Of a DNA stretch of 64,000 nt, positions 839 to 55,765 are shown piece by piece. The stretch spans positions 22,664 through 86,663 of the forward strand of contig CAMYAY010000003.1 of NCBI GenBank assembly GCA_947253945.1, read 5' to 3'. Every line of letters begins with the position of its first letter. Positions within the stretch are counted from its first letter, which is position 1. Source of the stretch: an uncultured Candidatus Saccharibacteria bacterium (GTDB taxonomy: Bacteria > Patescibacteriota > Saccharimonadia > Saccharimonadales > Saccharimonadaceae). The notes beneath the pieces are model-generated. The model ran no database searches and was not told the DNA's origin. It saw only the letters and a program-made list of their open reading frames with translations. The position numbers and the translations under genes are program-made.

Positions 839-978
839 TGGCTGACTACAGAATTGGGCGATTTAGCGTGATTATTGCCACGGCATCGTGCTTGTGCTAT
901 ACTAATTGAGTAAGAAAATTGTGCGAGAATTAGCTACGAGAGCTAGCTAATAACCAGTTGACGAGAAGGAGGGTTTTA

Positions 979-3015
979 ATGAGCCGAAGTTATTTAGTGG
1001 CGCCGCGGGCGGCAATCTATACTGGAGCGGCGTTAGTAGCTGCGCTGGGATTATTTGCGATGCCGGCGCATGCGGCCGAGCCGACTAGTGCGACTAAGGC
1101 AATTAGCATTAATGTTGGCCCAGTAGTTAATTTGACGTCGCAAGGCGACTCTTATAAGGCGACGGCTAATATTACGGTGCGGGCGAGTGAATCAAATGGC
1201 TTTAGGCTGACTATGGCAGCGAGCGGGCAGGATTTGGTGAATGTAGCGAACGATAAGTATAAGATTACCGCTGTTAGTGAGGGCAAGCCGGCTAAATTAT
1301 CGGCTAACCAATGGGGCTACGCGTTCAACCAAGCTGCGACTGAGTTTAGTCAAGTTCCTACGGCGGCCCATTCGTTGCAGCTTGCGAATACTCTACCGAA
1401 CAACTTGGATGGTTGCGCTAGTATTAGCGAGTGCACAAAGTCGGTGACTTTTGCGGCGAATATTGACAATACCACTCTACCAGCTGGCCGTTACAGCACG
1501 CAGGTTGTTTATACTGTCACGCCAAAGCTGGCGCCGAAGCCACCAGTGGTGAGCAAGTCTATTTGCCGGGCGGGCGCCGCGGATAACAACTGTAAGGTTG
1601 ACATCGACCCAGACATGGTGCCGGTTAAATACATTAGTAAGATTGACAAAAAAGGCCAAGAGACTGGTAAAGCCGAGCTGCTAAGTGTAGCCGACCCAGA
1701 AGCTGCCAATAGTGGCTGGTATGATTATGCCAACAAGCAGTGGGCGAACGCTGTGACGGTGAAGAAGGAGGCTTACGCGAAGTACAAGGGTAAGAGTGAG
1801 CCAATTGACCCAGCTGATGTTTTGGGCTACTGGGTGTACATCCCGCGCTACGCTTATGAGGTAATGCGCCGTGACTATACTGATAAAATAGCTAAGGAAC
1901 AGGATTTTAATATTCACTTTGAAAAGGCGACCGACCCGAAGCGCGTGCCAGCAGCTTGCGCGAGCGAGGGCAGTGACTACCGTACGGAATGTGGCTTGAA
2001 TCGCGATTATATTGATGGTAAGCCAAGTAACCAAGGCACTTGGGCGACCCACCCAGCATTTACCTTTGGTAAGAAGGAGCTGAACGGCATTTGGTTTGCG
2101 AAGTTTAACACTACTGGCAATCTCAAGCAGCCAACCGTTTTGCCAAATGTGCCACAGATTTCTGGCACGACCGAAGGTGTCGATAGTACTAACGCTCCGA
2201 TGGAGTTTTATGCGGCGGCGAAGTCACTTGGAGTGGCTGATGCAGCTAATACAGCTGGTGGCACGCCGTTAGCCGTTCAGAATAGCCATAATTTGGCGCG
2301 CTATAGCTCGCGTATGGTTAACAATAAGGATTGGAGCGCTATGGCTTATCTCACGGCGAGCCAGTATGGCGCTGGCAATAAGGGCGGCAGAAAGACCGGC
2401 TCAACAACTTATCGTACTAAAAAATCTAAAGATAGATATAAACTATACCTTACTGGCTGCGGTAGAAGTTCGAGTGCTAAGAGGAATAATGATACAGATA
2501 AATTTGATACGAGTGCGATTTGCGGTGGTAGCGGTGCTGGTAAGGAGTATGATTATGACAATATAGGGCGGTTTACTAGTACAACCAAGACTGTTTCTGG
2601 TGTTTATGACACAGCTAGTGGCGACGCAAGAGCTTTTGTAGCGGCAGGATATAGCGACGACCTTGCACACGCCATGGGCGAGGCTAAGACTGATGTACGG
2701 TATGCCAACCTGTATAACTTTAGCGAATTCAAGCAATGTACTTGGCTAACTTGTGGTGGCCAAGCGTTACATGAGGTTAACCTATATCACGATATAAAAT
2801 CAGGTAACTCATCGAAAGAACGTACTGGCCAATGGCTGTCTAACGAAGGGAGTAAATTTGTTTCGGCCGATAAACCTTGGTTTAGCCGATATAGCCTCTT
2901 TGATGCAGACCCTGTAGCTGGTATGCCGACCAAGCCAGCTGACAATAAGAAAGACAAAGACGTCAGATATACGTATTCCTTCCGCGTCGTGCTGGGCGAC
3001 TTTCGCCAGCAGTGA
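979..3015 (+). CDS. Secreted surface-protein family member A. N-terminal ANQWGY beta module, Pro-rich linker, C-terminal FGE-sulfatase-like domain. No poly-G switch.
   Basis: ATG at 979 with AAGGAGGG SD; the ORF-track start at 958 is an upstream TTG. Signal peptide ends ...AMPAHA. Shares the motifs NITV..GF.LTM, ANQWGY, AGRYSTQVVYTVTPKLAPKPP, CKVDIDPDMVPVKY, YWVYIPRYAYEVMRRD, GTWATHPAFTFGKKELNGIWFAKF, CGGQALHE and the GVYD FGE-like motif with seven paralogs in the window. Confidence 0.7.
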   Translation: MSRSYLVAPRAAIYTGAALVAALGLFAMPAHAAEPTSATKAISINVGPVVNLTSQGDSYKATANITVRASESNGFRLTMAASGQDLVNVANDKYKITAVSEGKPAKLSANQWGYAFNQAATEFSQVPTAAHSLQLANTLPNNLDGCASISECTKSVTFAANIDNTTLPAGRYSTQVVYTVTPKLAPKPPVVSKSICRAGAADNNCKVDIDPDMVPVKYISKIDKKGQETGKAELLSVADPEAANSGWYDYANKQWANAVTVKKEAYAKYKGKSEPIDPADVLGYWVYIPRYAYEVMRRDYTDKIAKEQDFNIHFEKATDPKRVPAACASEGSDYRTECGLNRDYIDGKPSNQGTWATHPAFTFGKKELNGIWFAKFNTTGNLKQPTVLPNVPQISGTTEGVDSTNAPMEFYAAAKSLGVADAANTAGGTPLAVQNSHNLARYSSRMVNNKDWSAMAYLTASQYGAGNKGGRKTGSTTYRTKKSKDRYKLYLTGCGRSSSAKRNNDTDKFDTSAICGGSGAGKEYDYDNIGRFTSTTKTVSGVYDTASGDARAFVAAGYSDDLAHAMGEAKTDVRYANLYNFSEFKQCTWLTCGGQALHEVNLYHDIKSGNSSKERTGQWLSNEGSKFVSADKPWFSRYSLFDADPVAGMPTKPADNKKDKDVRYTYSFRVVLGDFRQQ

Positions 3016-11518: not shown

Positions 11519-11546
11519 TTGACGTAAGCTCGCGGGGGGGTACAAT
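11519..11546 (+). promoter_or_regulatory. Sigma70-like promoter TTGACG-N16-TACAAT upstream of the 11608 gene, whose spacer contains a G7 homopolymer
   Basis: ttgacg taagctcgcggggggg tacaat, with the G run at about 11534-11540. The spacer is 16 nt, so one more G would give the optimal 17. Confidence 0.45.
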
Positions 11547-11607: not shown

Positions 11608-13269
11608 ATGAGTAAACGCAAATACTTGAACGCTATATCGGTTGGCGTGATGGCTTTTGGTACGTTGGCGCTGGGCGTGGCATTTGTCTTGCCGGACGCT
11701 TTGGTGACTAACGCTGCGAGTGACAGTGACATTCAGAAGGAGTTGGATAGAATTGTCAAGCAGGGTGATGCGGCTTATCCTAAGTATGTGCAATACAAAA
11801 AAGTAGCTGATGAAGCGAAGGCAAAGCTAGACAAGGCTGCTGCTGATGCAGTTGCGGCTGATAAGGCGGCAGCTGATAGTAATACCATGTCTACTATAGC
11901 GTGGTTTCGACAAAATTACGTCAAGGCCTTGGATGAGGCCGAGAGCTTGCGCGCGCCAGGTTCGGCTACATATAAGGCGGCTGACGAGCTTGAGAAGTTT
12001 GACCAAGAGAAGGGCTACACCAAAAATCGCATTGAAGAAGCCTTCCTTAATAGTCTCATCAAGGCTGCCGACAAGCCAAAGCCAGCGGCAGACAAGGAGG
12101 CTCAGTTGATCGCACTAGCCGATGTCATGGACGGTATCGACGCCAAAGTCTTAACCGACAAGCAGGCAGGTGCTCTCAAGAATCACAGTGAGTACTTCCG
12201 CGGCAAGAAGGTGGTAGACGGCAGGCCGAGCAAGGTTCTTGAAGATATCAATGACGCTATTAAGCACGCTGCTGGTGCCGAGCGCAGAGCAGAAGGTGAG
12301 GGTATGTCTAGCGATTCTAAAACCTCAGGCTGGGGCTACAGCCAGCCAGTCCTCAGTGTGTGTGGTGCGACGCGTTACGATGAGAAGGCTTGGGCCTACG
12401 CAACTTACAAAGGCTTTGGAAAAGAGGGAACTGCGCATGTCGCTAGGGTCAATCAGGACTTCGCGATGTTTATGCAAAATGTGGAAGACCGCTTCCATGC
12501 CGTGCTTGATGGTAAGTTAGACAAGGCTGCCCTCACTACTCAGCGTGACCAAGCTAGGCAAGCCTACGAGAAGGTAGCTGCAGAGTTTGCCCAGAAGGAA
12601 AAGGCGGCGCAAGATGCTTGTACCGCTGCTAAGGCAACGTTTGAAGCACCAACAAGGGTAACTGAGCAGTTTAGGAAGGCTAAGACAGAGGCTCCGAAGT
12701 TAGCTGCTAAGGCTAAGGCGGCGCATGCTGCAGTATTGCCGCTAGCAGTTGCGGAATGGGATGCTGCTACTAACTTGCGCCCGTATGCTGAGGAAGTTAG
12801 CTCGCTCAAGGAACAGCTAGCAAAACTAGCTGAGGGTAAGGGGCTTAACTTTGTTGCTAAGCAGATTCGTAGTAGCAAGAATTCAACCTTTGCTGCACTA
12901 GCAAATCTAGTACGCGAGGGTCTAAGGGCTGCTACTCCAACTCCGGCTCCAACCCCAGCTGATGATAGCGATGACCATCTATTGGATTACCCGCAGCTTC
13001 CAGATAATAACGACTATGACCTAAGTGATTACATGGGGCTAGGTAAGTACGAGGGCACTAATAAGGAGAATGGTTCAGAGAAGAACACTCCGAACAAGCC
13101 GGCCGAGAAGGGCGATAAGACCATTGAGGTTACCCCAGAGAGCAATAAGCAGCCTAACGCTGACCAGGACGCTACTAAGAATGCTCCTAAGGACACTCCT
13201 CAGGGGCAACAGCAGGTCAAGAAGGGTCACCATAAGTACGGTGCACCTAACACCGGTTACAAATTCTAG
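11608..13269 (+). CDS. Secreted Ala/Lys-rich surface protein
   Basis: GAAGGAG SD. Signal peptide MSKRKYLNAISVGVMAFGTLALGVAFVLP. Long Ala/Lys-rich helical repeats and a Pro/Thr-rich C-terminus. A terminator follows at about 13296-13330. Confidence 0.55.
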   Translation: MSKRKYLNAISVGVMAFGTLALGVAFVLPDALVTNAASDSDIQKELDRIVKQGDAAYPKYVQYKKVADEAKAKLDKAAADAVAADKAAADSNTMSTIAWFRQNYVKALDEAESLRAPGSATYKAADELEKFDQEKGYTKNRIEEAFLNSLIKAADKPKPAADKEAQLIALADVMDGIDAKVLTDKQAGALKNHSEYFRGKKVVDGRPSKVLEDINDAIKHAAGAERRAEGEGMSSDSKTSGWGYSQPVLSVCGATRYDEKAWAYATYKGFGKEGTAHVARVNQDFAMFMQNVEDRFHAVLDGKLDKAALTTQRDQARQAYEKVAAEFAQKEKAAQDACTAAKATFEAPTRVTEQFRKAKTEAPKLAAKAKAAHAAVLPLAVAEWDAATNLRPYAEEVSSLKEQLAKLAEGKGLNFVAKQIRSSKNSTFAALANLVREGLRAATPTPAPTPADDSDDHLLDYPQLPDNNDYDLSDYMGLGKYEGTNKENGSEKNTPNKPAEKGDKTIEVTPESNKQPNADQDATKNAPKDTPQGQQQVKKGHHKYGAPNTGYKF

Positions 13270-14319: not shown

Positions 14320-14328
14320 GGGGGGGGG
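14320..14328 (+). repeat. Poly-G tract (G9 as read) in the 5' leader of family member B. Candidate slipped-strand phase-variation switch, currently OFF.
   Basis: ATG at 14293 has a GGAGGA SD, but the reading MNILRLNSCGGG hits TAG straight after the tract. With G8 it reads through into the 14420 ORF frame. Confidence 0.6.
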
Positions 14329-14419: not shown

Positions 14420-15730
14420 TTGTCCATAGCAGGTTTGGCAGGGGTATTTTTGCCATTGCCAGCAATGGCTGATGATTCAATCGATATTTCCGTTGACCCA
14501 GATGTTAGTTTGATTAAGCACGGTAATCTATATAAGACTACCGTTGGTATAACTGTTGGTGCAGAAGAGCCATATGGATTTAATATCTCCATGCAGGCTG
14601 CCGACTCTAGTTTGTCTAATAGCATAGACAAGAGCCATAAAATAACGTCTACACAAAGCGATACACCGGTTGAACTAGGGGCCAATCAGTGGGGGTACGC
14701 ATTAGATAACAATGCGGGTAAATTTAGCAAAATTCCTAGTAGCTCAGAGAGTGTGGCTAATATAGTGGATGTTACTAAAGATAATTTGTCCGGGTGTAAA
14801 AGTGTAAAATTCTGCACCAAGCGGGTTACTTATGCTGCCAATATTGATGCAGCTAAGTTGTCAGCTGGTAATTATAGTACCAGTATTACTTATACGGCCA
14901 CAGCAAAGGCGGCCCCTGCGCCAGTTCCAACTCCGCCAGCACCTGAGCCGTATGTGCCGCCGGCACCAAAAAGTAATGGCTGTCGTCAGGGCAGTTCTAA
15001 CTGTTCTATTCATATACCTAGGCAAGGTTACGATGCTAGCTCTAGCTACGTCTATGATAATTACTATGGCTGTTCATCTTTAGGTGGAGACTATGGTGTT
15101 GAAAGAGCATGCAAAGACCATCGTAGATCTTATGATAACAATATGTTGTCTTTGGATTCGCTTTTGCCGGTAAAACGAGAAGGTGGTGAATGGGTGTCGG
15201 TTCCGTCTTCTAATGATGATGACTATAATTATGACGGTACCAGTGGCAATAAATGGACATATATTGCTGTTATAGATAATGATGATAAACGTAGGCTGTA
15301 TTTCCAGAAAAAAACAGTGGTTGATTTAAAATATGTTACCGCAATTTATACATATGTACCACGCTATAAGATGGAAGATGGCAAAGTGGTGTTTTGTAAA
15401 CAAGCGGATTTCGCTAGTTGTGAGGGCCGACACGATTTTTATGGGGTGTTTAGTGATGCAACTGTAACGAATTATACGGATGGGTTTTGGGTTGATCTTA
15501 AGAGTGTGATGGGATGTAGCTATATGATGCCGAGCACTACGATGTATTCCTTTAACCATAACACTGTATATGATGATCATCTTCTGAATAGCTATGTTTT
15601 TGTAGAAAGGGATTATGGGTCATTTAAAGAGTATGGCGCTAATTACTATAGTGATTATAGGAATACTGATAGCCCTATTGAAACTACAGCAAAAGATCTT
15701 GCCAAAGCTATTGGTTCGCCATGCTATTAG
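14420..15730 (+). CDS. Secreted surface-protein family member B (N-terminal ANQWGY module, Cys/Tyr/Asp-rich C-terminus). Phase-OFF; the ON form would start at 14293.
   Basis: The ORF-track start is a TTG without an SD. The upstream frame with G8 gives MNILRLNSCGGGRFLSPLLQITKSRGKIAGAAKWNLYYCLAFLSIAGLAGVFLPLPAMA, an extended signal peptide. The N-domain motifs YGFNISMQA, ANQWGYAL and AGNYSTSITYTATAKAAPAP are present. Confidence 0.6.
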   Translation: MSIAGLAGVFLPLPAMADDSIDISVDPDVSLIKHGNLYKTTVGITVGAEEPYGFNISMQAADSSLSNSIDKSHKITSTQSDTPVELGANQWGYALDNNAGKFSKIPSSSESVANIVDVTKDNLSGCKSVKFCTKRVTYAANIDAAKLSAGNYSTSITYTATAKAAPAPVPTPPAPEPYVPPAPKSNGCRQGSSNCSIHIPRQGYDASSSYVYDNYYGCSSLGGDYGVERACKDHRRSYDNNMLSLDSLLPVKREGGEWVSVPSSNDDDYNYDGTSGNKWTYIAVIDNDDKRRLYFQKKTVVDLKYVTAIYTYVPRYKMEDGKVVFCKQADFASCEGRHDFYGVFSDATVTNYTDGFWVDLKSVMGCSYMMPSTTMYSFNHNTVYDDHLLNSYVFVERDYGSFKEYGANYYSDYRNTDSPIETTAKDLAKAIGSPCY

Positions 15731-21315: not shown

Positions 21316-21498
21316 GTTTGTCCTTTGATTAATTACTCATATCTTACCGCGCTATCATAAATCGCGCAAGACTGAAGGCGGCGACAGAGGTGGCAGGGTG
21401 GTGCGCGAAAAATTTGGCATTTTATTTTGTTAGTGCTATAATTCAGGTATCTACCTTGGAGGCAGAAAAAGAAAAAATAAAGGAGGAGAATAAACAAT

Positions 21499-22467
21499 AT
21501 GAATAAATTACGGCAAACAGCTGTGGGGGGGGGTAAATTTTTAAGACTTTTGCCTCACGTTACTAAGTGTAGGGATGAAGTGGCTACATCAGCGCCTGCG
21601 ACGTTAAGCTTCAATCATCTCGTTTTTGCGGCGCCCACTACATTATTTAGCTTGTTAGCGTTGGCTATCGTGCCGTTGGTTTTTACTGCGCCAGCCCATG
21701 CAGACTATATTAATGTTGTCCTTGATGCACCCAATGCTACATTGAATGGTGTAGGGAAGTATTTTAGCTATAGGAATGTTATTACAGTAAACAATAGTAA
21801 TAGTTATGGTTTTACGCTTGGTATGTATGCCAATAATCCCAATCTAGTCAATAACAGAGATTCAAATTATACAATTAGTAGTGTTTCGGGGCGTGGAAGA
21901 TATCTTGGCTCTAATCAATGGGGGTACAGCATGACGGGTGATGACGGTACATTTAATGAGATACCAAGGTCATTGTATAATGCTGTAACATTGGCAGATG
22001 TAACGAACAAAGCAAAGGGCGTATGTAGTAGTGTTGCGTACTGCCATATTCCAGTTACTTTCGGCGCTAATATTGAATCTAATAAAAGCGCCTCGGGCTA
22101 TTACTCTACGACGTTAATTTATACTGTTACCAGTAAACCAAAACCGTATACCCCACCAACGCCACCGGCGCCAGATCCAGAGCCATATCATCCGTCTACA
22201 CCACCAATTGGTGGCGGGACGGGCTATCATGATTGGTGGAGTGCATGTCGCACTAGATATCCTGGCTATGATTTAGTAACTGAGGACAAGATTAGTTATT
22301 GCGCGCATCATGAAGGCGACATGGACGGCTATGCCCCGGATTGGAATTCGATATGTACTAAGAGATATCCTGGTACTTATAGCCGGCAACTTAATGCAAG
22401 GTCATATTGTATAGCTCACGAAGGCAACATGAATGACTATCCGGATGATCCTAATAATAATATATGA
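21499..22467 (+). CDS. Secreted surface-protein family member C (N-module plus two Cys-rich C..RYPG..YC.HEGDM.GY repeats). Poly-G leader in frame (ON).
   Basis: AAGGAGGAG SD. MNKLRQTAVGGGKFLRLLPHVTKCRDEV...FSLLALAIVPLVFTAPAHA is an extended signal peptide. The G9 tract at 21525-21533 encodes VGGG. Confidence 0.65.
   Translation: MNKLRQTAVGGGKFLRLLPHVTKCRDEVATSAPATLSFNHLVFAAPTTLFSLLALAIVPLVFTAPAHADYINVVLDAPNATLNGVGKYFSYRNVITVNNSNSYGFTLGMYANNPNLVNNRDSNYTISSVSGRGRYLGSNQWGYSMTGDDGTFNEIPRSLYNAVTLADVTNKAKGVCSSVAYCHIPVTFGANIESNKSASGYYSTTLIYTVTSKPKPYTPPTPPAPDPEPYHPSTPPIGGGTGYHDWWSACRTRYPGYDLVTEDKISYCAHHEGDMDGYAPDWNSICTKRYPGTYSRQLNARSYCIAHEGNMNDYPDDPNNNI
21525..21533 (+). repeat. Poly-G tract (G9) inside the leader codons of member C, ON configuration
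   Basis: GCT GTG GGG GGG GGT AAA is in frame. Confidence 0.6.
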
Positions 22468-22732
22468 CACGTATAGTTGCTATTTTTTGTAATGATAAAA
22501 TATTGCCAAGAAGCTTGATTAACTGTGTATCATGAATGATGACACGAGATAATTATTGTCCATTGGTCATTGCTAGTTGGCTTTATATTATTGTATGTAG
22601 AAATTCATTGTTCCGCTAATTATTAAATTAATAAAAAGTTTGGCATTTTATTTTGCTAGTGTTATAATTCAGATATCTACCTTGGAGGCAGAAGAAAGAA
22701 AAAATAATGAAAAACAAAGAGAAATAAACAGC

Positions 22733-23695
22733 ATGAGAAAGCATTTGACATTGGCGCGCAGTGATAGTCAATCAACTGGCGCAAATAGCAACTCCATTTG
22801 TATGGTATCGATTGCTTTGTCTTTGTTGTTTGTTGCGTCGTTGGCTTTTGCCACACCGGCTTATGCGGACAGTATTTCAATAAGCCTCGACTCTACCGCC
22901 GTTGCTCTACAGCGCAGTGGGGATTTGTATAAGCACACTAGTAGTATCCATGTACACAACAATAATACTTACGGCTTTACGCTTAGCATGAGTGCCAGTC
23001 AGCCAAATTTGGTAAACAGCAAGGACTCTACTTATAAGATAAACTCCGTTTTTGGCACCAACCAGCACCTTGCCGCTAACCAGTGGGGTTATGGCATGGG
23101 TAAGACGCCCGCTACATTTAGTTCAGTTTCTTCTGCGTCGCTGGCGGATATTACCAGCAACAATAAAGGCAGCTGCAGCGCTGTTGATGACTGTACACTC
23201 TATCTCACCTTTGGTGCTAACATTGATTCGAAGCGCCTGCCAGTAGGTAATTACAGTACTACATTGACTTATACCGCAGTTAGTAAGCCAGCTCCGTATG
23301 TACCATCAACGCCAACACCAACGCCGAGCCCACCTTCGGGTGGTGGATCGTCGGGTCATAGTTCTTTGTATTATTTATGCGAAAGGAGATATCCCGGTAA
23401 TAGTGATATAGATAGGTGGGAATATTGTTTCGATCATCATGGCGACATGAGTGGATTTGATGACTACTATTTAAATAAGACATGTAGTGAAAGATACTCC
23501 GGCGATGATGATAAGATATCATACTGTAAGGATCATGATGGCGACGTGAGTGGCTATGTACCTGATTGGAATAAGATATGTAGTAGAAGATACCCTGACT
23601 ACTATCTTGATTCTCTTAGTAAGAGGGCATATTGTTACCATCACCATGGCGATATGAGTGGCTATGTTGACTATTATCATCCCGGCGGCAACTAA
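22733..23695 (+). CDS. Secreted surface-protein family member D (N-module plus four Cys-rich C..RYP..YC.HHGDMSGY repeats). No poly-G.
   Basis: Start set at MRKHLTLARSD; the ORF track extends to 22640. Signal ends ATPAYA. ANQWGYGM and VGNYSTTLTYTAVSKPAPYVPSTPTP are present. The C-terminal repeats are CERRYPGN..YCFDHHGDMSGF, CSERYSGDDDKISYCKDHDGDVSGY, CSRRYPDYY...YCYHHHGDMSGY. Confidence 0.6.
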   Translation: MRKHLTLARSDSQSTGANSNSICMVSIALSLLFVASLAFATPAYADSISISLDSTAVALQRSGDLYKHTSSIHVHNNNTYGFTLSMSASQPNLVNSKDSTYKINSVFGTNQHLAANQWGYGMGKTPATFSSVSSASLADITSNNKGSCSAVDDCTLYLTFGANIDSKRLPVGNYSTTLTYTAVSKPAPYVPSTPTPTPSPPSGGGSSGHSSLYYLCERRYPGNSDIDRWEYCFDHHGDMSGFDDYYLNKTCSERYSGDDDKISYCKDHDGDVSGYVPDWNKICSRRYPDYYLDSLSKRAYCYHHHGDMSGYVDYYHPGGN

Positions 23696-26689: not shown

Positions 26690-26699
26690 GGGGGGGGGG
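26690..26699 (+). repeat. Poly-G tract (G10 as read) in the 5' leader of family member E. Candidate phase-variation switch, currently OFF.
   Basis: ATG at 26663 has a GGAGGA SD and reads MNILRLNSCGGGVDF then TAA. With G8 or G11 it reads MNILRLNSCGGGRFLRYFPHIVKREGKIATPAP... straight into the 26854 ORF. Confidence 0.6.
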
Positions 26700-26853: not shown

Positions 26854-28824
26854 GTGGCACTCGGTCTGTTTGTTTTAGCTTTTGCGCCATTAATCTTAGT
26901 TACGCCAGCCCACGCCACCGATGATAACACTGTCAGCATCGCGGTTGACCAGAACGCTACACTAAAGCCAGCTGGCACGCTCTATAAAGCCACCACGAAC
27001 GTTACCGTTAAGACCGGCAAACCCTACGGCTTCAATCTCACCATGCAAGCCGATACGGCTGACCTTGTAAACAGTAAGGACCCAACCCATAAAATCTCCG
27101 CCACTCCAAGCACCACCCCGGTTGCCTTAAACGCTAACCAGTGGGGTTATGCTCTTAATAAGTCTGCCTCTACTTTCAGCGCCGTCCCAGCTGGCACCCA
27201 AGCCACGCCAGCCGTCATTGTTGATACATCAGTTAAAGGCAAGCAAGCTGGTTGTAATTGTAAAGACCATTGCGATACCACTGTTACTTTTGCAGCCAAC
27301 GTCGACCCAGCTAAATTAGCCAGCGGTAGCTATAGCACCACCATTATCTACACGGCTACTGCCAAACCAGCTCCAAAACCACCGGTAGTTGAGCCAACGG
27401 TTTGTAAGTCCGGCGACCCAAAGAACGATTGCCAAGTTGACCTCGACCCAAACATGATCCCAGTCAAATATACTGGCAGTATCTATAACGCAGAGTGGAC
27501 CAGTGTAGCCGATCCAGAAGATAGTTCCAACCAAGGAAATTGGTATGACTACGATAACAAGCAATGGGCTAATGCTATCACTGTAAAGCCATGGGCTCTC
27601 AGTAAATATCAGGGTCAGACCAGGGTAGTAGACCAATCAGATATTCTTGGCTTTTGGGTCTACATACCACGTTATGCTTATGAAGTCATGCGCCGTGATG
27701 CTACAGACAAGCCGGTGCCAGCGCAGAATTTCCTAATTCATTTTGAAAAGAAGACCGACCCGAAGCGCTATCCAGCCGAATCAAAATGTGCTGGCCGTAA
27801 TATGGATTACCGTACCACCTGTAGACTCAATCGCGATTATATCAAGGGCCAGCCAAGCACCCAGGGCACCTGGGCCACCCACCCAGCCTTTACCTTCGGC
27901 GCTAAAGAACTCAATGGCATCTGGTTTGCTAAGTTTGAGACGACGGGTAGTATTGACCATCCAACTATTTTGCCTAATCAATCCCATATAGGGTATGAGC
28001 CTATCGGAACATATTACACGGTAGCTAAATCTCTTGGGGTTAACGACCCACAAAATATTGGTGGCAACAGTATATCCACTACCCAAAATAGCCACAATCT
28101 TGCTAAGTTTAGCTCTCACATGGTAAATAATAGCGACTGGGGTGCAGCTACTTACTTATCTGCTAGTAAGTATGGTTCTGGCTATAATAAGGTTCAAATG
28201 AATACTAATGGACAGGGGCATAGTACTGGCTACAATGATATGTCGTCATATGGTATTACTGGATGTGGTCCGCGTTCTAGTGGCGATGCTAGTAGCTATG
28301 GAGGTAATAGCAGCTATCAGTATAGGCCAAACTATACCGACGAAGTTGGTGGTGTGCTAGGCACCCAAAGTGCTTGCTATTCTGGTGATATACAGCGTGC
28401 TTACAATGGCACCCTTGGCCAACTCGCTAGTACCGCCAACAACCCAACAGGTATTTATGATATGTCTGGTGGGGCTTCGGAATATACTGCATCTAGTTAT
28501 ACTAGTGATCTAAATAATTCTAGTACTATTAATTTCAGACAATCGCCTGCTCGTCCACCGTATGCTAACATATATAATTTCGATACCCTAAATAGATGTA
28601 CTTTTTCTACCTGTGGTGGTCAAGCTCTACACGAAACAAATAGTGATAGCACCGTAGCTCGATGGAATGGTGGCTGGGTAAAATTTGTGGGGCATTCTGC
28701 TCCGTGGTTTGAACGTGGTGGCTACTATGGTGACTCGCATATAGGACTGTTTCGTGTTAGTATTTCGAATGGTGGTCCCATTGGTATGGTCGCGTTCCGC
28801 GTCGCGCTCGCGCCTACGGTGTAA
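26854..28824 (+). CDS. Secreted surface-protein family member E (N-module plus FGE-sulfatase-like C-domain). Phase-OFF; the ON form would start at 26663.
   Basis: The ORF-track start is a GTG without an SD. About 85-90% identical to member G (40276) over the N-module. Motifs ANQWGYALN, CQVDLDPNMIPVKY, YWVYIPRYAYEVMRRD, GTWATHPAFTFGAKELNGIWFAKFETTG, GIYDMSGGASEY, CGGQALHE and FRVALAP are present. Confidence 0.65.
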   Translation: MALGLFVLAFAPLILVTPAHATDDNTVSIAVDQNATLKPAGTLYKATTNVTVKTGKPYGFNLTMQADTADLVNSKDPTHKISATPSTTPVALNANQWGYALNKSASTFSAVPAGTQATPAVIVDTSVKGKQAGCNCKDHCDTTVTFAANVDPAKLASGSYSTTIIYTATAKPAPKPPVVEPTVCKSGDPKNDCQVDLDPNMIPVKYTGSIYNAEWTSVADPEDSSNQGNWYDYDNKQWANAITVKPWALSKYQGQTRVVDQSDILGFWVYIPRYAYEVMRRDATDKPVPAQNFLIHFEKKTDPKRYPAESKCAGRNMDYRTTCRLNRDYIKGQPSTQGTWATHPAFTFGAKELNGIWFAKFETTGSIDHPTILPNQSHIGYEPIGTYYTVAKSLGVNDPQNIGGNSISTTQNSHNLAKFSSHMVNNSDWGAATYLSASKYGSGYNKVQMNTNGQGHSTGYNDMSSYGITGCGPRSSGDASSYGGNSSYQYRPNYTDEVGGVLGTQSACYSGDIQRAYNGTLGQLASTANNPTGIYDMSGGASEYTASSYTSDLNNSSTINFRQSPARPPYANIYNFDTLNRCTFSTCGGQALHETNSDSTVARWNGGWVKFVGHSAPWFERGGYYGDSHIGLFRVSISNGGPIGMVAFRVALAPTV

Positions 28825-28953: not shown

Positions 28954-31080
28954 ATGGTAGAGGTAAGGTCTAAATTGCGGCGGATTTATTTGGTGAGTGG
29001 CATGGCATTGATTGTGCTCGCCACCCTTCTGGTGTTGCATCCGGCGCCGGTGCAGGCGCGGCTGGCCAGCCAGAGCGCGACGCCGACTAATGACGGCATA
29101 GAAGTTACGTCTGTTGACGAACTGAAGCTGCAGCGGGGTGAGCACCGCTTTTACAAGGCTACCAATCACATTTTTGTCAAGACAGGCTGGAAGTACGGCT
29201 TCAGTGTGACCATGTTGGCGTTGACGCCGGATTTATTGCACAATCCGAACCCTATTTCTGACTGTGGTAGCGTTGTGATCGCAGCCCCTAAGAGCTATGA
29301 GCCGGTGGATTTGCAGCCGGGGCAGTGGGGCTTTAGCCTCGACCAAAATGCTACCAAGTTCAGGCATATTCCGAGTATGTGGCAGGCTCGGCCGCACGAC
29401 GACCCGCTACTGATAGCCGAAACGTCTCCAAACAAGACCGGCAAGTGTGCCAGCGCCCATGAGTGTGATGTGCCGGTGACCTTTGCGGCTAATTTAGACT
29501 CCAATGACATCGCTGCTGGCAAATACGAGACTAATGTTTATTACACGGTGACCGCTAAGCCGCGCCCGCCGCATGTGATTGAGGAGCCGAACATGAGCAC
29601 TAATTTTTGCCAGTCCGGCAACGCAGCGAACAGCTGTAAGGTTGATATCGACGCCAACATGATTCCAGTGCGCTACGACACCGAATATGCCAAGTGGGTG
29701 AGTGTAGCCAAGACCGAAGACGCCGCGCATCAGGGTAGTTGGTATGATTATAATAAGAAGCAGTGGGCGAACGCCGTGACGGTGAAGAAATCGGCATTAA
29801 GTAAGTACCAAGGCCAAGCTAAACCTGTCGACCCAGCTGATATTCTCGGTTACTGGGTGTATGTGCCGCGCTATGCTTATGAGGTGATGCGGCGTGACTT
29901 TAGCAACCACCTTCCAGTGAAGCCGCAGAATTTTGCCATTCACTTTGAAAAAGCGACTGACCCAAAGCGCACTCCGGCGCCATGCGAGCGTAGTTCGTAC
30001 TTCATGCCGGATTACCGGAAGGATTGTAAACTCGACCGCAGCTACATTGCTGGCAAGCCGAGCAAGAACGGCACTTGGGCGACTCATCCAGCGTTTAGTT
30101 TTGGCAAGAAGGAGCTGAACGGCATTTGGTTTGCGAAGTTTGAGACCACTGGTACGAAGACTCAGCCAACGGTGCTGCCGAACCAGCGTCGTATGACTGG
30201 CGCTGACCTTGGTGGCGACGCTGCGGGCTTGTTCTATACGCTGGCTAAGACTGTGGGCACTGTTGACCTTGGTAACGTTGGCGGTACGCGCATCAAGGAC
30301 GCGCCAAGTAACGCGCACGACCTCGCCAAGTTTAGCTCACGCATGATAAACAATAAGGACTGGGGCGCCTTAGCTTACCTCAGCGCCAGCGAGTTCGGCA
30401 CGGGCTACAACGGCTTACAGTCAAACAACCAGACCGACGACCAAATGGACGCCGACCAGAATTTCAGCAAGGGTGTAACGGGCTGTGGCGCCGGCACCGG
30501 CGAAGACTACTCCGACACTGGCAAGTTGGGCACGGAGCAGGCTTGTAACGCAAACCACCCAGAGTACGCCTATAATGGCACCGTCGGACAGCACGCCAGC
30601 ACCACTGGTAACGTGACAGGCGTGTACGACATGGCGGGCTATGGTGGCTACGTGGCGGCGAAGTATGTTGTTGATCCAAATACGCTAGTGCCGAGCTCCA
30701 TACCAGAGTTTGCACGACCGAAGTATACGTGGTATCACAAGAGCGACCCGACTGGCATTGGCGCGCCGCTCAACTCGCCGTACCTCAATGCTTATAACTT
30801 CTCGTCGTTTGACAAGTGTACTTATGAGCTTTGTGGTGGGCAGGCTAGCTATGAAGTTCACAACATCTACGTCCCGTCCGGTCCAAATCAGTGGCTGGGT
30901 CAAAAGTATGACGATTACAAGATGGAGGTTGAGGATACTTGGGTTTACCGTGGCGGCAGTAGCGACCTTGAAGGCGACATTGCGACAGGTGACCGCGGTA
31001 TTTACACCTTCCATCTTGCGAACGGTGGTTCAACTGGCCAAGACGGCTTACATATTGTCCTCGGCGCATTTAAGCAGTAA
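28954..31080 (+). CDS. Secreted surface-protein family member F (divergent N-module plus FGE-like C-domain). No poly-G.
   Basis: GGAGGTGG SD. Signal ...LHPAPVQA. Motifs QWGFSL, CKVDIDANMIPVRY, YWVYVPRYAYEVMRRD, GTWATHPAFSFGKKELNGIWFAKFETTG, GVYDMAGYGGY and CGGQASYE are present. Confidence 0.7.
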   Translation: MVEVRSKLRRIYLVSGMALIVLATLLVLHPAPVQARLASQSATPTNDGIEVTSVDELKLQRGEHRFYKATNHIFVKTGWKYGFSVTMLALTPDLLHNPNPISDCGSVVIAAPKSYEPVDLQPGQWGFSLDQNATKFRHIPSMWQARPHDDPLLIAETSPNKTGKCASAHECDVPVTFAANLDSNDIAAGKYETNVYYTVTAKPRPPHVIEEPNMSTNFCQSGNAANSCKVDIDANMIPVRYDTEYAKWVSVAKTEDAAHQGSWYDYNKKQWANAVTVKKSALSKYQGQAKPVDPADILGYWVYVPRYAYEVMRRDFSNHLPVKPQNFAIHFEKATDPKRTPAPCERSSYFMPDYRKDCKLDRSYIAGKPSKNGTWATHPAFSFGKKELNGIWFAKFETTGTKTQPTVLPNQRRMTGADLGGDAAGLFYTLAKTVGTVDLGNVGGTRIKDAPSNAHDLAKFSSRMINNKDWGALAYLSASEFGTGYNGLQSNNQTDDQMDADQNFSKGVTGCGAGTGEDYSDTGKLGTEQACNANHPEYAYNGTVGQHASTTGNVTGVYDMAGYGGYVAAKYVVDPNTLVPSSIPEFARPKYTWYHKSDPTGIGAPLNSPYLNAYNFSSFDKCTYELCGGQASYEVHNIYVPSGPNQWLGQKYDDYKMEVEDTWVYRGGSSDLEGDIATGDRGIYTFHLANGGSTGQDGLHIVLGAFKQ

Positions 31081-40275: not shown

Positions 40276-42381
40276 ATGAGTAAATTACGGCAAACAGCTG
40301 TGGGGGGGGGTAAACTTTTAAGATATTTTTCCCACATTGTCAAGTGTGAGGACAAAATAGTTACTCCGGCGCCAACAGCCAACCGCAATAATTTATTGGC
40401 GAGCAGTCTTGCCCGCAGGGTGGCGTTTAGTGCTATCGCTCTGGCCGTTGCGCCATTTATCCTCACTGCACCAGTCTATGCTGCTGACGATAACACCGTC
40501 AGCATTGCCGTTGACCAGAACGCCGCACTAAAGCCTACTGGCAATCTCTACAAAGCCACCACCAATGTCACTGTCAAGACCGGCAAGCCCTACGGCTTCA
40601 ATTTAACCATGCAAGCCGACACGGCTGACCTTATCAACAGCAAGGACCAAACCCACAAAATCTCTACCACCCCAAGCTCCACGCCGGTTGCTCTTAATGC
40701 CAACCAGTGGGGCTATTCCTTAAACTCTAAGGCCACCACTTTCAGCAGTGTACCAAATCGCACCCAACCTGCGGCCATGATTGCCGACGTCACCAAAGCC
40801 AAGCCAGCAGGTTGTACCAACCCAGCAAGTTGCACTAAGTCCGTTACTTTTGCGGCTAACGTCGACCCGGCGAAATTAGCCAGCGGTAGTTACAGCACCA
40901 CTATCACTTATACCGCAACCGCGAAGCCAGCCCCAAAACCACCTGTAGTTGACCCAACGGTTTGTAAGTCTGGCGACCCGCAGAACGATTGCCAAGTTGA
41001 CCTTGATGCCAACATGATTCCAGTTAAGTACACCGGCAGCACCACCAATGCTCAGTGGACCAGCCTTGCCAATCCCGAAGATAGTTCCAACCAAGGTAAT
41101 TGGTATAACTATAATAACAAGCAGTGGGCTAACGCCTTAACTGTAAAAGACCCAAGCAAGTACAAGGGTAAGAGCATGGTGGTTGACCAAGCCGATATCC
41201 TCGGCTTCTGGGTGTACATTCCACGCTACGCTTATGAGGTGATGCGGCGTGATGGTACGGATAAACCAGTTCCAGCCCAAAACTTCCTAATTCAATTTGA
41301 GAAGACGACAACGCCAAAGCGTGTGCCGGCGGCTTGCCCGGAGCAGGGTAAAGACTACCGCACTCAGTGTGGCTTAGACCGTAGTTACATTAAAGGCCAA
41401 CCAAGCAACCAAGGTACTTGGGCGACCCACCCCGCCTTCACTTTCGGTGCTAAAGAGCTCAACGGCATCTGGTTTGGTAAGTTTGAGACAACAGGCACTA
41501 CAGATCAACCAACCGTCTTACCAAACGAAGCCCATATTTCTGGTGAATATAGTGGTATGAATAACGAAGTCGGTAACTTCTACTCACTCGCCAAGACTCT
41601 CGGCGTTGAAGACCTGAATAACGTTGGTGGTAGCGGCTTTACCACCACTCAAAACAACCATCACTTTGCCAAATTTAGTTCTCACATGGTCAACAATGAC
41701 GATTGGGGTGCCGTCACTTACTTAAGTGCCAGTAAGTACGGCGCTGGCTATAATGGTGTCCAAATCAATGCTAATGGCACAGGACATAATAATATTAGTT
41801 CTGGTACTACTGGTTGCGGTCCATATGCTAATGGAGATACTGGCTCATATTCTGCTAATACAACAGAATCGTATATAACTTACAAAAATATTAGTATCGG
41901 TTCACTTGGTTCTCAACAAGCCTGTAGCAGCGACGGCACTCGTGCCTACAACGGCACTCTCGGCCAACTCGCCAGCACCACCAACAACCCAACCGGCATC
42001 TACGATATGTATGGTGGTGGCTATGAATATGTCGCTGCTAGAAGATATACTGGTGACGACTCTAGTACTGACTACTTCAGCCAACCAGCTAATCCGCCAT
42101 ACGTCAACACATATAACTTCAGCGACCTGGATAGCTGCACTTTCGCTACTTGTGGCGGCCAAGCCCTTCATGAAACCAATCTATCCAATTCTGCAAATGG
42201 TTCTAAACAATGGAATAACAACATCTCATACTTCGCGAGTTATATTAAACCGTGGTTTGAACGGGGTGGCGACTACAGCTCTGGCTCGTTTGCTGGTTTG
42301 TTCTCTGCCGTCTCCGACGATGGCTACAGCTACGACGGCAGTGCCTTTCGCGTCGCGCTCGCGCCAGCGCCGTATGATTAG
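40276..42381 (+). CDS. Secreted surface-protein family member G (N-module plus FGE-like C-domain). Poly-G leader in frame (ON).
   Basis: GGAGGA SD. MSKLRQTAVGGGKLLRYFSHIVKCEDKIVTPAP...VAFSAIALAVAPFILTAPVYA. The G9 tract at 40302-40310 encodes VGGG. Near-identical to member E. Confidence 0.7.
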   Translation: MSKLRQTAVGGGKLLRYFSHIVKCEDKIVTPAPTANRNNLLASSLARRVAFSAIALAVAPFILTAPVYAADDNTVSIAVDQNAALKPTGNLYKATTNVTVKTGKPYGFNLTMQADTADLINSKDQTHKISTTPSSTPVALNANQWGYSLNSKATTFSSVPNRTQPAAMIADVTKAKPAGCTNPASCTKSVTFAANVDPAKLASGSYSTTITYTATAKPAPKPPVVDPTVCKSGDPQNDCQVDLDANMIPVKYTGSTTNAQWTSLANPEDSSNQGNWYNYNNKQWANALTVKDPSKYKGKSMVVDQADILGFWVYIPRYAYEVMRRDGTDKPVPAQNFLIQFEKTTTPKRVPAACPEQGKDYRTQCGLDRSYIKGQPSNQGTWATHPAFTFGAKELNGIWFGKFETTGTTDQPTVLPNEAHISGEYSGMNNEVGNFYSLAKTLGVEDLNNVGGSGFTTTQNNHHFAKFSSHMVNNDDWGAVTYLSASKYGAGYNGVQINANGTGHNNISSGTTGCGPYANGDTGSYSANTTESYITYKNISIGSLGSQQACSSDGTRAYNGTLGQLASTTNNPTGIYDMYGGGYEYVAARRYTGDDSSTDYFSQPANPPYVNTYNFSDLDSCTFATCGGQALHETNLSNSANGSKQWNNNISYFASYIKPWFERGGDYSSGSFAGLFSAVSDDGYSYDGSAFRVALAPAPYD
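40302..40310 (+). repeat. Poly-G tract (G9) inside the leader codons of member G, ON configuration
   Basis: GCT GTG GGG GGG GGT AAA is in frame. Confidence 0.6.
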
Positions 42382-50690: not shown

Positions 50691-50943
50691 TACAGGTAGT
50701 CGCTTGAGCCCGCCAGCTTGGCGGGCTTTTTTGATTGGCTTTTGTCGGCAAATTAGTCTAAGCCGCGAGCTAAATCGGTTTGAGCTGGGTCGCCGCGTCC
50801 GCCGGCGGGCTTTACGCTAAAGGCTTGTTGCCGCATTGTGCTTGTGTTATACTAGAGGTATACGCGCGAGAGACGTAGTTAAATAACTATCCACACTACT
50901 AGTGACCGATAGTTAATTGCGAGAGTTAATAACAAGGAGGGTA

Positions 50944-53189
50944 ATGCGGATAGCAAATCTATGCCAACTTTTGTCACGCCGGCTGGCGTGGAACAATGGC
51001 GCGGGGCGCTGGTTATTTGGGCTACCCCTGTTAGTTGCGGCGCTGGCGGTGGCTAATGTGCAACCGGTAAGGGCTGAGATGGCGGACTACGTTGGCATGG
51101 ATCTTGATACTAATGAGGTGAAGCTTAACGATGACAATGATTTTACGCAGGACACTACCATCACAGTGAACCACGCCACGCGCAAATTCAACCTCAGCAT
51201 GTTTGCTGACACGGCTGAATTAAAGAGTACTGACGACAAAAATACGGCTAGCATCAAGCCAATAGGGGGGGCAATCGCGACCTCGAGGCTGGGCAGTGGG
51301 GTTACCGTTTGGCGGGGCAGACTAAATTTAGCCCAGTTTCCGCCGACCAAGCGAAGCCGACGATTTTAAAGCAGGACGCCGACGGCCCACAAGAGATGGA
51401 CGAGAAAGTGACATTTGCTGTCAACAAGTCGGGTGTGTTACAGGGCACTTATAAGACCAAGGTGACTTATACGTTGACGTTTGCGCCGTCGTCATGGCCG
51501 TTTGATAGCGATACTTGCCGCTCGGGTGACCAGAAGAGCGGTTGCAAAGTTGACATCGATCCACACATGATACCCGTCAAATACACCGGTAATGAGACGA
51601 AGCCGGAGTGGCGGACGGTGGCGAAGGCGGAGGACGCCGCGAATCAGGGTGACTGGTACGATTACAGTCAGCGCCGTTGGGCGAATGCCATCACTGTGAA
51701 GAAGGATGCACTCGCTAAATATCAGCTCGCTAAAAAACAAGGTGAGTCGATAAAGGTGGACGACGCCGACGTGCTAGGCTATTGGGTGTATGTGCCGCGC
51801 TACTCGTACAAAGTGCGCGATTATAGTGATGTCGACGAAGATAGTCACGGCGCAGACAATAACTTTGAGATTAAGTTTGAGCGCGCCAACCAGCCGCGGC
51901 GGATTTCGGACCCGAGTGATACTGTTGACCACGACACTTACGAACCAGATATTGCCTCTTGGGATTGGCATAGCCCTTGGAAGACGCCGCGTGGCTTTGT
52001 GTTTGGCGACCGTGACCTCAATGGCATTTGGCTTTCAAAGTACCAGATTAGCTTCGCCAACAATACGGCTCAGTCGTTGCCGAACCAGCCAATGCTTCGC
52101 GGTGGCACTAAGGATACTGATTTGTTGGTGAAGTCGCTGACGGTGCTTCAGAGCATTGGCAAGCCTGACCCGAAGCAACCCAAGCCAGCAGGCGAAGTCG
52201 ATTTACCACCGGTGAAGCAAAATTCACACAACTTGGCCGAGCTCAGCTCGCGCATGCCGCGCAGTTCTGAGTATGCCACGGCTATTTATCTAGCTTACAG
52301 TAAGTACGGTATTGGGCTTAATCGTGAGCATAAGTATACCGAGGGCAAGAATCGTGGTAAGGTGCAGTGGTATGACGGCATTCAGGGCAATAATTTTGAC
52401 CTCTATGCTTCTCATGGAGGTGGAGATCCTACTTATGGTAGTATTACCGGCTGCGGGCCGTTAGCTGACCAGAGTACGGCTAAGTACGGTAAGGAGGGTA
52501 GCGCCGTGCGTGGTGGCACAGCTGGTACTGACGCGGCTTGCGGCGTTGACCTTAAGCATGGCTATTACACTAAGTTGGGACAGCTCGCGAGCACTAGTGG
52601 TAATCAAACCGGTATTTATGATATGGCGGGATCGAATAGCTGGGAAGTGACAGCGTCGCTGATGAAGAATGTGAATGGCGATGGCGGTTCCAACGACAAT
52701 AGCGACAGCGGTATTGAGATTGAGGATGACAAGGATAAGAAAAGAAAACGAAAATGGAGTTTTAAGGAAGCACTTGAAGAGCAATTTGAAAGTGGTAAGT
52801 TGCCAGCGCCATACTATGAATACCTAAGATATAACGCTTCTGGCGACGATGAGCAAAATGAATTTACTCTTAATAGTGGCAAAGATTTTGGCGACGATGT
52901 TGGCTATGACGGCGAAATAAATGACTGGATTAATGCTGGTGGCATGGCAAATGACGAGTTTAGTTGGGGAGGCAGTAACTATCTTGATGGCAGTACTACC
53001 CTTTCTGGCGGTGATAACTGGAATGGGTTTCCTCTGGTGTCGCGTGGCGGTGGCTATAAGGAGGATGTCTCGAATGGGCCACTTTCGACGTTTGTAAGTT
53101 CAATCTTTAAACCTGATGGCAGCGACACTTACCGTGCCGTGCTGACTTTGCCACCAGAAATCCCAAAGAACGATGTTTCTGATAGCTAG
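50944..53189 (+). pseudogene. Surface-protein family member H, split by a frameshift at an internal poly-G tract. Either a phase-variable gene in the OFF state or a pseudogene.
   Basis: AAGGAGGG SD and ATG at 50944. The ORF track splits it into 50917..51369 and 51309..53189 in different frames. The break falls at a G tract around 51265-51271, just before the family QWGY motif. The downstream part carries CKVDIDPHMIPVKY, YWVYVPRYSYKV and GIYDMAGSNSWEV. Confidence 0.55.
51265..51271 (+). repeat. Internal poly-G tract (G7 according to the ORF-track frames; I count 7-8 in the printed sequence) at the frameshift site of member H
   Basis: With one more G the frame reads ...KPIGGGNRDLEAGQWGYRLAGQTKFS... 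and continues to 53189. Confidence 0.5.
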
Positions 53190-55294: not shown

Positions 55295-55765
55295 ATGAGT
55301 AAGATGATAACGCCAGAGGATGTTTTACGAGTACTATTAGAATTACAGTCTCTCGATGAAGATTCGGGTGACGTTATTACTAATCTCAAGGCGCAAAAGT
55401 TGCTCTATTACGTACAGGGCGTGGCGTTAGCCAAGCTCAACCAACCGATGTTTCAGGAGGATTTTGTGGCATGGCAGTACGGGCCGGTGATAGTTCGGCT
55501 GTATAACGAGCTTAAGCAGTTTGGCCGGAATCAAGTTGAGCTGCCGCCCGTGACTGGCTTGGTGGAAGACAAATTCAGCGACGACCAGCTGGATGTTATT
55601 GCTTCGGTGTATAAGACCTTCGGTCAGTTTTCGGCTTGGAAGTTGCGTGATATGACACACGCCGAGGCGCCTTGGCTAGACGTCAACATTAACGACACGA
55701 TACCAAAGGCCTCAATTGCGAAATTCTTTAAAGCAAGATACTGCAATATCCCGGTATGCCAGTAA
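55295..55765 (+). CDS. Panacea-domain (DUF4065) protein, putative PanA-like antitoxin
   Basis: ITNLKAQKLLYYVQGVALAKLNQPMFQEDFVAWQYGPVIVRLYNELKQFG is a close match to the Panacea core. GGAG SD. Confidence 0.6.
   Translation: MSKMITPEDVLRVLLELQSLDEDSGDVITNLKAQKLLYYVQGVALAKLNQPMFQEDFVAWQYGPVIVRLYNELKQFGRNQVELPPVTGLVEDKFSDDQLDVIASVYKTFGQFSAWKLRDMTHAEAPWLDVNINDTIPKASIAKFFKARYCNIPVCQ

Follow-up and report, generated by a model that had tools for sequence, protein, structure and literature searches.

We analysed a 64,000-nt stretch of DNA from an uncultured Candidatus Saccharibacteria bacterium (GenBank GCA_947253945.1, contig CAMYAY010000003.1, positions 22,664 to 86,663; here called the window), and focus on gene H, a member of a paralogous gene family whose reading frame is broken in the window by a run of seven G residues (G7). 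Sequence comparisons make it probable (we estimate about 0.8) that gene H is a contingency locus that switches by slipped-strand mispairing and is in the OFF state here. The gene combines a tract of at least seven G residues, placement of that tract where a change in length switches the reading frame, length polymorphism between conserved flanks, and the lack of any other lesion.

Gene H extends from ATG 50944 to a stop codon at 53189 (~748 aa), and the G7 tract breaks it into open reading frames (ORFs) of 141 and 626 aa. The initial annotation of this DNA described two overlapping ORFs in different frames, and both are present: 50917..51369 (frame 1) encodes 150 aa from a TTG or 141 aa from ATG 50944, and 51309..53189 (frame 3, from the program-made ORF list) encodes 626 aa. 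The frame changes where that annotation placed it, at the G tract at 51265-51271, and the tract length, given there as '7-8 G', is exactly G7 by direct count. Window positions 51260-51279 read CAATA GGGGGGG CAATCGCG, the immediate flanks being ...CCAATA-GGGGGGG-CAATCGC.... In the G7 frame the gene continues as PIGGAIATSRLG..., losing the family motif as had been noticed, and ends at TAA 51367-51369. Adding one G in silico joins both ORFs into a 748-aa ORF reading ...IKPIGGGNRDLEAGQWGYRLAGQ... / ...ASIKPIGGGNRDLEAGQWGYRLAGQ..., in agreement with the intact protein of about 750 aa that had been anticipated. Removal of two G residues (G5) likewise restores the frame of gene H with one Gly fewer, and translation of the G9 version ends after ~125 residues. 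The H orthologs P0008, P0019 and P0024 begin MRIANLCQLL..., in accord with a start at ATG 50944, and gene calls of 141 aa and 593 aa are also found on the source contig (locus L020, see below). The features of the gene that bear on the switch are:

50935-50940 and 50944-50946, + strand: Shine-Dalgarno sequence AGGAGG and ATG start codon, by direct reading of the sequence.
50944..51369, + strand: OFF product, 141 aa, comprising the putative signal peptide, part of the immunoglobulin-like (Ig-like) domain and 32 out-of-frame residues.
51265..51271, + strand: poly-G tract, G7 (OFF); the in-frame G8 form (ON) encodes Gly108-Gly110.
51294..51305, + strand: QWGY motif (CAG TGG GGT TAC), in the downstream frame; the tract lies in a loop 8 residues before it.
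51272..53189, + strand, frame 3: the rest of gene H, encoding the remainder of the pilin-like Ig domain, the middle domain, the FGE/C-type-lectin-like region and the C-terminus.

The loci related to the gene H region come from Candidatus Saccharibacteria metagenome-assembled genomes. Among complete genomes, the closest is that of TM7-H1 or BVAB-TM7 (CP026537, a PacBio assembly), a 0.72-Mb vaginal Saccharibacterium with reported links to bacterial vaginosis and preterm birth (PMC6750801). The ENA scaffold BLOO22-1_SAMN25037632_METAG-scaffold_16 (L020) matches the window over 8,306 bp at 100% identity; other strains are ~93% identical to the window. A protein search with repaired H recovered 28 full-length ortholog clusters (733-755 aa, 80-89% identity); in six further clusters, of 580-593 aa, the protein begins at an internal Met immediately past the tract. 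For the DNA comparison of gene H we used 24 orthologous loci, which represent 17 distinct alleles. The G tract occupies the same codons in all 24 loci, between the conserved flanks ATCAAGCCA(A/G)TA and CAATCGCGACC, and is found in the following states:

G8, in frame (ON): 10 alleles.
G7, out of frame (OFF): the window (identical to L020), L003, L004 and L006.
G9, out of frame (OFF): L002 and L005.
G7 derivative GTA GGG GGG GCG AAT, in frame: L014 and L015.
G7 derivative ATA AGG GGG GGC, in frame: L023.

The intact G8 ORF that the initial annotation envisaged for related genomes is present in most alleles. Orthologs that spell IKPVGGANRDL hold a G7 tract in frame through a different downstream base order.

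Tract length is the sole lesion in every OFF locus, and setting it to G8 restores an ORF of 733-748 aa in each of the six OFF alleles. L003 (G7) aligns with L009 and L010 (G8) over 7,744 bp with no mismatch and a single gap, the tract itself; the alignment of L004 (G7) with L022 (G8) over 5,945 bp has a single gap, again at the tract. The near-identical loci L003, L009 and L010 agree in their A6, T6 and G6 runs. Depending on the sample, one gene H allele had either G7 or G8. On a neighbour-joining tree the tract state changes at least eight times, and the OFF alleles are all single tips beside ON relatives. The ratio of nonsynonymous to synonymous substitution rates (dN/dS) is ~0.20 both upstream and downstream of the tract (mean dS 0.30-0.37) and lies between 0.13 and 0.25 in nearly all OFF-OFF pairs, the L004/L005 pair being too near-identical to be informative.

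Codon choice points in the same direction. Across gene H alleles the codon varies in 41 of 47 invariant-Gly columns, and GGG makes up just 12% of Gly codons. Within the tract, all 17 alleles share one GGG codon and 16 share the other; the tract codons are kept while other Gly codons vary, as expected if the run itself is maintained.

We propose that codons 108-110 (GGG GGG GGC) form a G tract that would gain or lose one base at replication by slipped-strand mispairing. With G8 in frame, the full exported H protein would be made (ON). With G7 or G9 the frame would shift to a stop after 141 or ~125 residues, and no lectin-like domain or complete Ig domain would be exported; the downstream 626 codons would lack an export signal even given some internal initiation. 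Switching would be frequent and reversible within populations. H would be exposed at the surface, where it could bind a ligand on the host bacterium, the human host or phage, and stochastic ON/OFF expression would be what selection maintains.

Four points weigh against this interpretation. All comparisons are between consensus assemblies, mostly metagenomic, in which poly-G length is among the less reliable calls. Tracts of G7-G8 lie at the short end of the range for high-rate slippage. The PriA protein of the window is common to four contigs, three of which were grouped as carrying mostly the same neighbouring genes, and this hints that G7 may be stable in the window strain. Finally, the function and surface location of H depend on a medium-quality model in which the C-terminal third is unmodelled, on sub-threshold Pfam matches and on an N-terminus read by eye. 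Exact-protein look-ups of PriA and Adk, aimed at the same strain with another tract state, listed the source scaffold, with further contigs grouped under it as similar, and a search of JGI metagenome contigs with the exact 20-mer upstream flank gave two chance matches only (L007 and L008), unrelated to gene H.

The best-surviving alternative, which we consider improbable, is that the tract is really G8 in an intact gene, one G having been dropped through a homopolymer miscall in sequencing or assembly. Homopolymer indels are the commonest assembly error, and a metagenome scaffold (L020) has the very sequence of the window. For oral Saccharibacteria genomes, one study assigned residual differences to homopolymer tracts and short repeats, and put homopolymer differences between near-identical assemblies down to nanopore error (PMC9600527). 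A miscall accounts poorly, however, for six alleles that have lost the frame, some with one base too few (G7) and some with one too many (G9), and that come from different samples and assemblers. It also accounts poorly for a tract that is the sole indel in the 6-8 kb of the closest pairs, with A6, T6 and G6 runs unchanged in L003, L009 and L010. Even were the call in the window wrong, the site would be length-polymorphic across strains.

Recoding, in which the G7 allele is decoded to full length by programmed -1 ribosomal frameshifting or by RNA-polymerase slippage, is very unlikely. The change of frame from upstream to downstream is indeed -1, and the zero-frame A GGG GGG is partly slippery; transcriptional slippage can arise at homopolymer runs, and some leaky expression of H is possible. 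Most orthologs are nevertheless in frame (G8) and others are +1 (G9), and no single recoding configuration is conserved. Folding of the 99 nt 3' of the tract is no more stable than that of shuffles (z = -0.56), and RNA polymerase slips poorly on G7 runs, in contrast to long A/T runs. With most orthologs in frame and no stimulatory structure, gene H lacks the marks of a programmed -1 frameshift site.

Least probable of all is that H is a decaying pseudogene, inactivated by a one-base deletion and on its way to being lost: the reading frame of H is broken in the window, several other assemblies have truncated gene calls, and pseudogenes accumulate in reduced symbiont genomes, but in six of six OFF alleles the tract frameshift stands alone, constraint (dN/dS ~0.2) persists on both sides of it and between OFF alleles, and these alleles form no clade, one existing as both G7 and G8. 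Neither independent lesions nor relaxed selection was found among the gene H alleles. The initial annotation had offered 'phase switch or pseudogene'; the G7, G8 and G9 orthologs bear out the switch and, with no second lesion and the low dN/dS, speak against the pseudogene. Disruption of orthologs at other positions, which it had named as the sign of decay, was looked for and did not appear, and the pseudogene reading of gene H is therefore rejected.

Contingency loci typically, though not by definition, act on proteins exposed at the surface or engaged with host or phage, and the N-terminus of H may bear on this:

50944..51075, + strand: signal-peptide/membrane-anchor-like N-terminus, residues 1-44, with a basic n-region, hydrophobic LFGLPLLVAALAVA, then VRA|E.

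This segment, read by eye from the translation, appears signal-peptide-like and is conserved in orthologs; it belongs to the low-confidence part of the structural model. The model was made with AlphaFold2 for the ortholog P0008 from a 60-sequence alignment. It is confident at residues 50-285 and patchy beyond (mean predicted local distance difference test score, pLDDT, 57.5); the middle domain is confidently modelled and the acidic, indel-rich C-terminus poorly modelled. P0008 folds in the model as a pilin-like Ig domain and a C-type-lectin (CLec)/FGE-like domain. The latter is, within a medium-quality model, structurally similar to solved FGE-type members of the C-type-lectin fold, and appears closest to variable proteins of diversity-generating retroelements (DGRs; TaqVP 5vf4, TvpA 2y3c). 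In the model, strands E103-106 and E118-123 flank the loop that holds the tract glycines, 8 residues before the QWGY strand. A tract in this loop could evolve, and vary by whole codons, without harm to the fold. Further downstream, a GIYDM motif (~52611-52625) falls in the FGE/C-type-lectin-like region, and the gene stops at TAG 53187-53189.

Sequence profiles gave less. Pfam and NCBIfam searches with H and its paralogs returned no significant family, and a profile search of PDB sequences with H returned nothing significant. H and P0008 had no match to PF03781 (FGE-sulfatase); sub-threshold matches to it were found in 19 of 60 family members (best E-value 3.3e-4). Taken with the model, these observations suggest that H is probably an exported ligand-binding protein, plausibly an adhesin.

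The likeness to DGR variable proteins raised the candidate that H is a DGR target gene, which we rejected: there is no template repeat/variable repeat (TR/VR) pair, and the direct repeats of the window are all paralog similarities of 62-89%. The ORFs scanned, a subset of those in the window, included no reverse transcriptase. H and the DGR variable proteins TaqVP and TvpA would have in common that they are ligand-binding surface proteins diversified by a dedicated genetic mechanism. They would differ in that the diversity of H is ON/OFF and generated by slippage rather than by mutagenic retrohoming.

H belongs to a paralogous family specific to Saccharibacteria. Paralogs of H lie in the window at 958-3015, 26854-28824, 28954-31080 and 40276-42381, with a partial copy at 14420-15730 (tblastn, 26-34% identity). 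QWG is invariant in a 60-member family alignment and the following Y is nearly so (F in one member). Four poly-G tracts are located within paralog ORFs near their 5' ends, at codons 9-12, after a short MN(I/K)LR... start. They are embedded in a shared motif, AAACAGCTGY-Gn-TARAYTTTTAAG, that precedes a hydrophobic segment, and follow the same frameshift logic as the H tract:

14320-14328: G9, OFF here; in frame at G8 or G11, 478 aa.
21525-21533: G9, ON here; 322 aa.
26690-26699: G10, OFF here; in frame at G8 or G11, 719 aa.
40302-40310: G9, ON here; 701 aa.

The initial annotation treated these as 'leader' switches and gene H as a possible 'third type of switch'. The tracts at 14320, 21525, 26690 and 40302 sit within ORFs rather than in leaders, and shift the frame of translation there; H is therefore not a third type, and that claim was overstated. 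H shares the switch mechanism of its paralogs ~100 codons further in, and position alone differs. The two kinds of tract have family, strand, G homopolymer, frameshift logic and mixed ON/OFF states in common. The paralog tracts are G9-G10 at codons 9-12, whereas the H tract is G7-G9 at codons 108-110, in an Ig-like loop, with no shared flanking motif. Paralogs have no GGG at the site of the H tract, and their loops there are unrelated (for example SATPSSTPV and TAVSEGKPA).

The 5' tracts also vary. The ortholog of gene 40276 in another strain (L028/L029) has G10 (OFF) at the site that is G9 (ON) in the window. Many database homologs of the paralogs begin at an internal Met just past the leader, as expected of gene calls made on OFF states. 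The same L028/L029 ortholog has an extra G7 (L028 3419-3425; L029 2069-2075) ~110 nt before the stop codon, in a conserved PWFxRGG motif; it is in frame, and G6, G8 or G9 alters or truncates the C-terminus. Gene 40276 of the window (PWFERGGDY) has no G tract at this motif.

The start of H retains a G-rich segment that can be compared with the 5' tracts:

50998..51009, + strand: G-rich GGCGCGGGGCGC encoding G-A-G-R (GGC GCG GGG CGC), from the N-terminal alignment.

The N-terminus of H, LAWNNGAGRWLF, aligns with LNSCGGGRFL and TAVGGGKFL of the paralogs, over only ~7 similar residues. The GAGR stretch may, speculatively, be a decayed and interrupted ancestral 5' tract.

Two short family members lie in tandem at 21499-22467 (322 aa) and 22640-23695 (351 aa) and consist of the N-terminal Ig-like part only. 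The promoter regions of the two (repeat family D13; 21408-21484 and 22634-22710) share 87% identity, and the second gene has no poly-G tract. Many other Saccharibacteria homologs (P0038-P0078 in the family alignment) have the leader MRQ(H/Y)KQSN.KTLWGGVIFW, whose W-G-G, read here at the protein level, could correspond to TGG GGG GGT, another G-run.

Taken singly, one G7 run per 64 kb could arise by chance. At 52% G+C, a first-order Markov model expects ~3.6 runs of at least G7 in the window, and the empirical fall-off of run lengths predicts <1. The six G-runs of at least 7 in the window measure 7, 7, 9, 9, 9 and 10; there are none of 6 or 8, and the longest C-run is at most 5. All six are on the coding strand, at or just 5' of genes for proteins with hydrophobic N-termini. 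The set is non-random, and for the H tract the decisive observations are its conservation and length polymorphism in the 24 loci.

The remaining run, G7 at 11534-11540, lies within the 16-nt spacer between TTGACG (-35-like) and TACAAT (-10-like), 5' of ORF 11608-13269, whose 553-aa product has a hydrophobic N-terminus and matches no Pfam family. This G7 is a candidate for a transcriptional phase switch acting through promoter spacing, and would be the sole mechanistically distinct tract.

In mechanism, gene H resembles loci of Campylobacter jejuni, Neisseria meningitidis/gonorrhoeae and Helicobacter in which an in-ORF tract of at least seven G toggles the frame by one base, among them hmbR, hpuA, nalP, mspA, pgtA and the C. 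jejuni capsule and lipooligosaccharide genes. Common to H and these loci are a conserved tract whose length differs between close strains, the presence of several such loci in a small genome and, if H acts at the surface as we suppose, targets that are surface or host-interaction proteins. A passage of the C. jejuni literature applies the same 'G7 or longer' criterion (PMC4965091), and in-ORF poly-G tracts have been described for hmbR/hpuAB (PMC3786947) and nalP/mspA (PMC3723659). H is unlike these loci in its host, an episymbiont-type bacterium (TM7-H1-like) of the Candidate Phyla Radiation (CPR), and in its protein family, which is unrelated and uncharacterised.

The Vlp, Vsa and Vsp systems of Mycoplasma are comparable in another respect: short repeats switch each gene of a multigene surface family in a tiny-genome, host-dependent bacterium. 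Mycoplasma differs in that switching often involves promoter poly-A/TA tracts or site-specific inversion, and in that the products are lipoproteins with repetitive C-termini, non-homologous to the H family.

Our literature searches found no report of phase variation by simple sequence repeats or poly-G in Saccharibacteria, CPR or TM7-H1. Related work describes phase variation in the host bacterium, not in TM7x (PMC11032452), and a hypervariable repeat gene in a Gracilibacterium (PMC6851277). Switching by this mechanism is textbook material for Campylobacter, Neisseria, Helicobacter and Mycoplasma, and the value of the present case is that it adds a new phylum and a new protein family. CPR bacteria, Saccharibacteria included, spend their lives attached to other cells, and little is known of their surface variation. 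If the switch is real, 'frameshifted' or 'truncated' CPR genes at G runs should be neither annotated as pseudogenes nor 'corrected' as errors. It would also name a candidate adhesin set for a clinically associated uncultured bacterium, and could be tested in existing vaginal metagenome reads by comparing G-tract lengths with co-resident bacteria or clinical state.

More tentatively, and with the odds against it, the window may carry part of a dense poly-G 'phasome', with at least six tracts per 64 kb (five in-ORF, one in a promoter spacer) that combinatorially switch lectin-fold adhesins and themselves turn over. The adhesins would be the Saccharibacteria-specific family of H, and the lineage is vaginal, TM7-H1-like and associated with bacterial vaginosis and preterm birth. 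Within such a phasome H would have lost its ancestral 5' tract (50998-51009) and gained an internal one. Choice among paralogs by slippage would do here what DGR mutagenesis does for the CLec proteins of other CPR lineages, and the partner of the cell, be it a host bacterium, a human surface or a phage, would depend on the paralog chosen.

Gene H stands in a conserved gene order: fmt-def (minus strand), rplU, gene H, priA (convergent), frr and uppS. The upstream rplU matches Ribosomal_L21p. Two elements lie between rplU and gene H:

50706..50728, + strand: terminator-like hairpin and T-run 3' of rplU, with a 10-bp stem containing 7 GC pairs.
50845..50853, + strand: putative extended -10 element of gene H, TGtTATACT, resembling TGnTAtAAT...AGGTAT upstream of the paralogs.

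The -10 element is proposed from its likeness to the paralog upstream regions of repeat family D13; a promoter consensus scan did not report it. Gene H is its own monocistronic transcription unit. Since a terminator precedes gene H and priA is convergent, the switch acts on H alone, and in a monocistronic gene the frameshift therefore has no polar consequences.

The same neighbourhood differs between strains in gene content. An ORF resembling a SocA/Panacea-domain antitoxin (window 55295-55765) lies between priA and frr as a strain-variable insertion, present in the window, L004 and L006 and absent from L003, L005 and L013. Some strains carry, between def and rplU, a gene for a type I restriction-modification specificity subunit (Methylase_S; L015 781-2043, L017 2627-3871) that is not in the window. 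Upstream of fmt, short C/G runs differ between L004 (~290-360; C7/G6) and L005 (C6). These runs may be another variable tract, outside the H family; the C-runs of the window are all <6.

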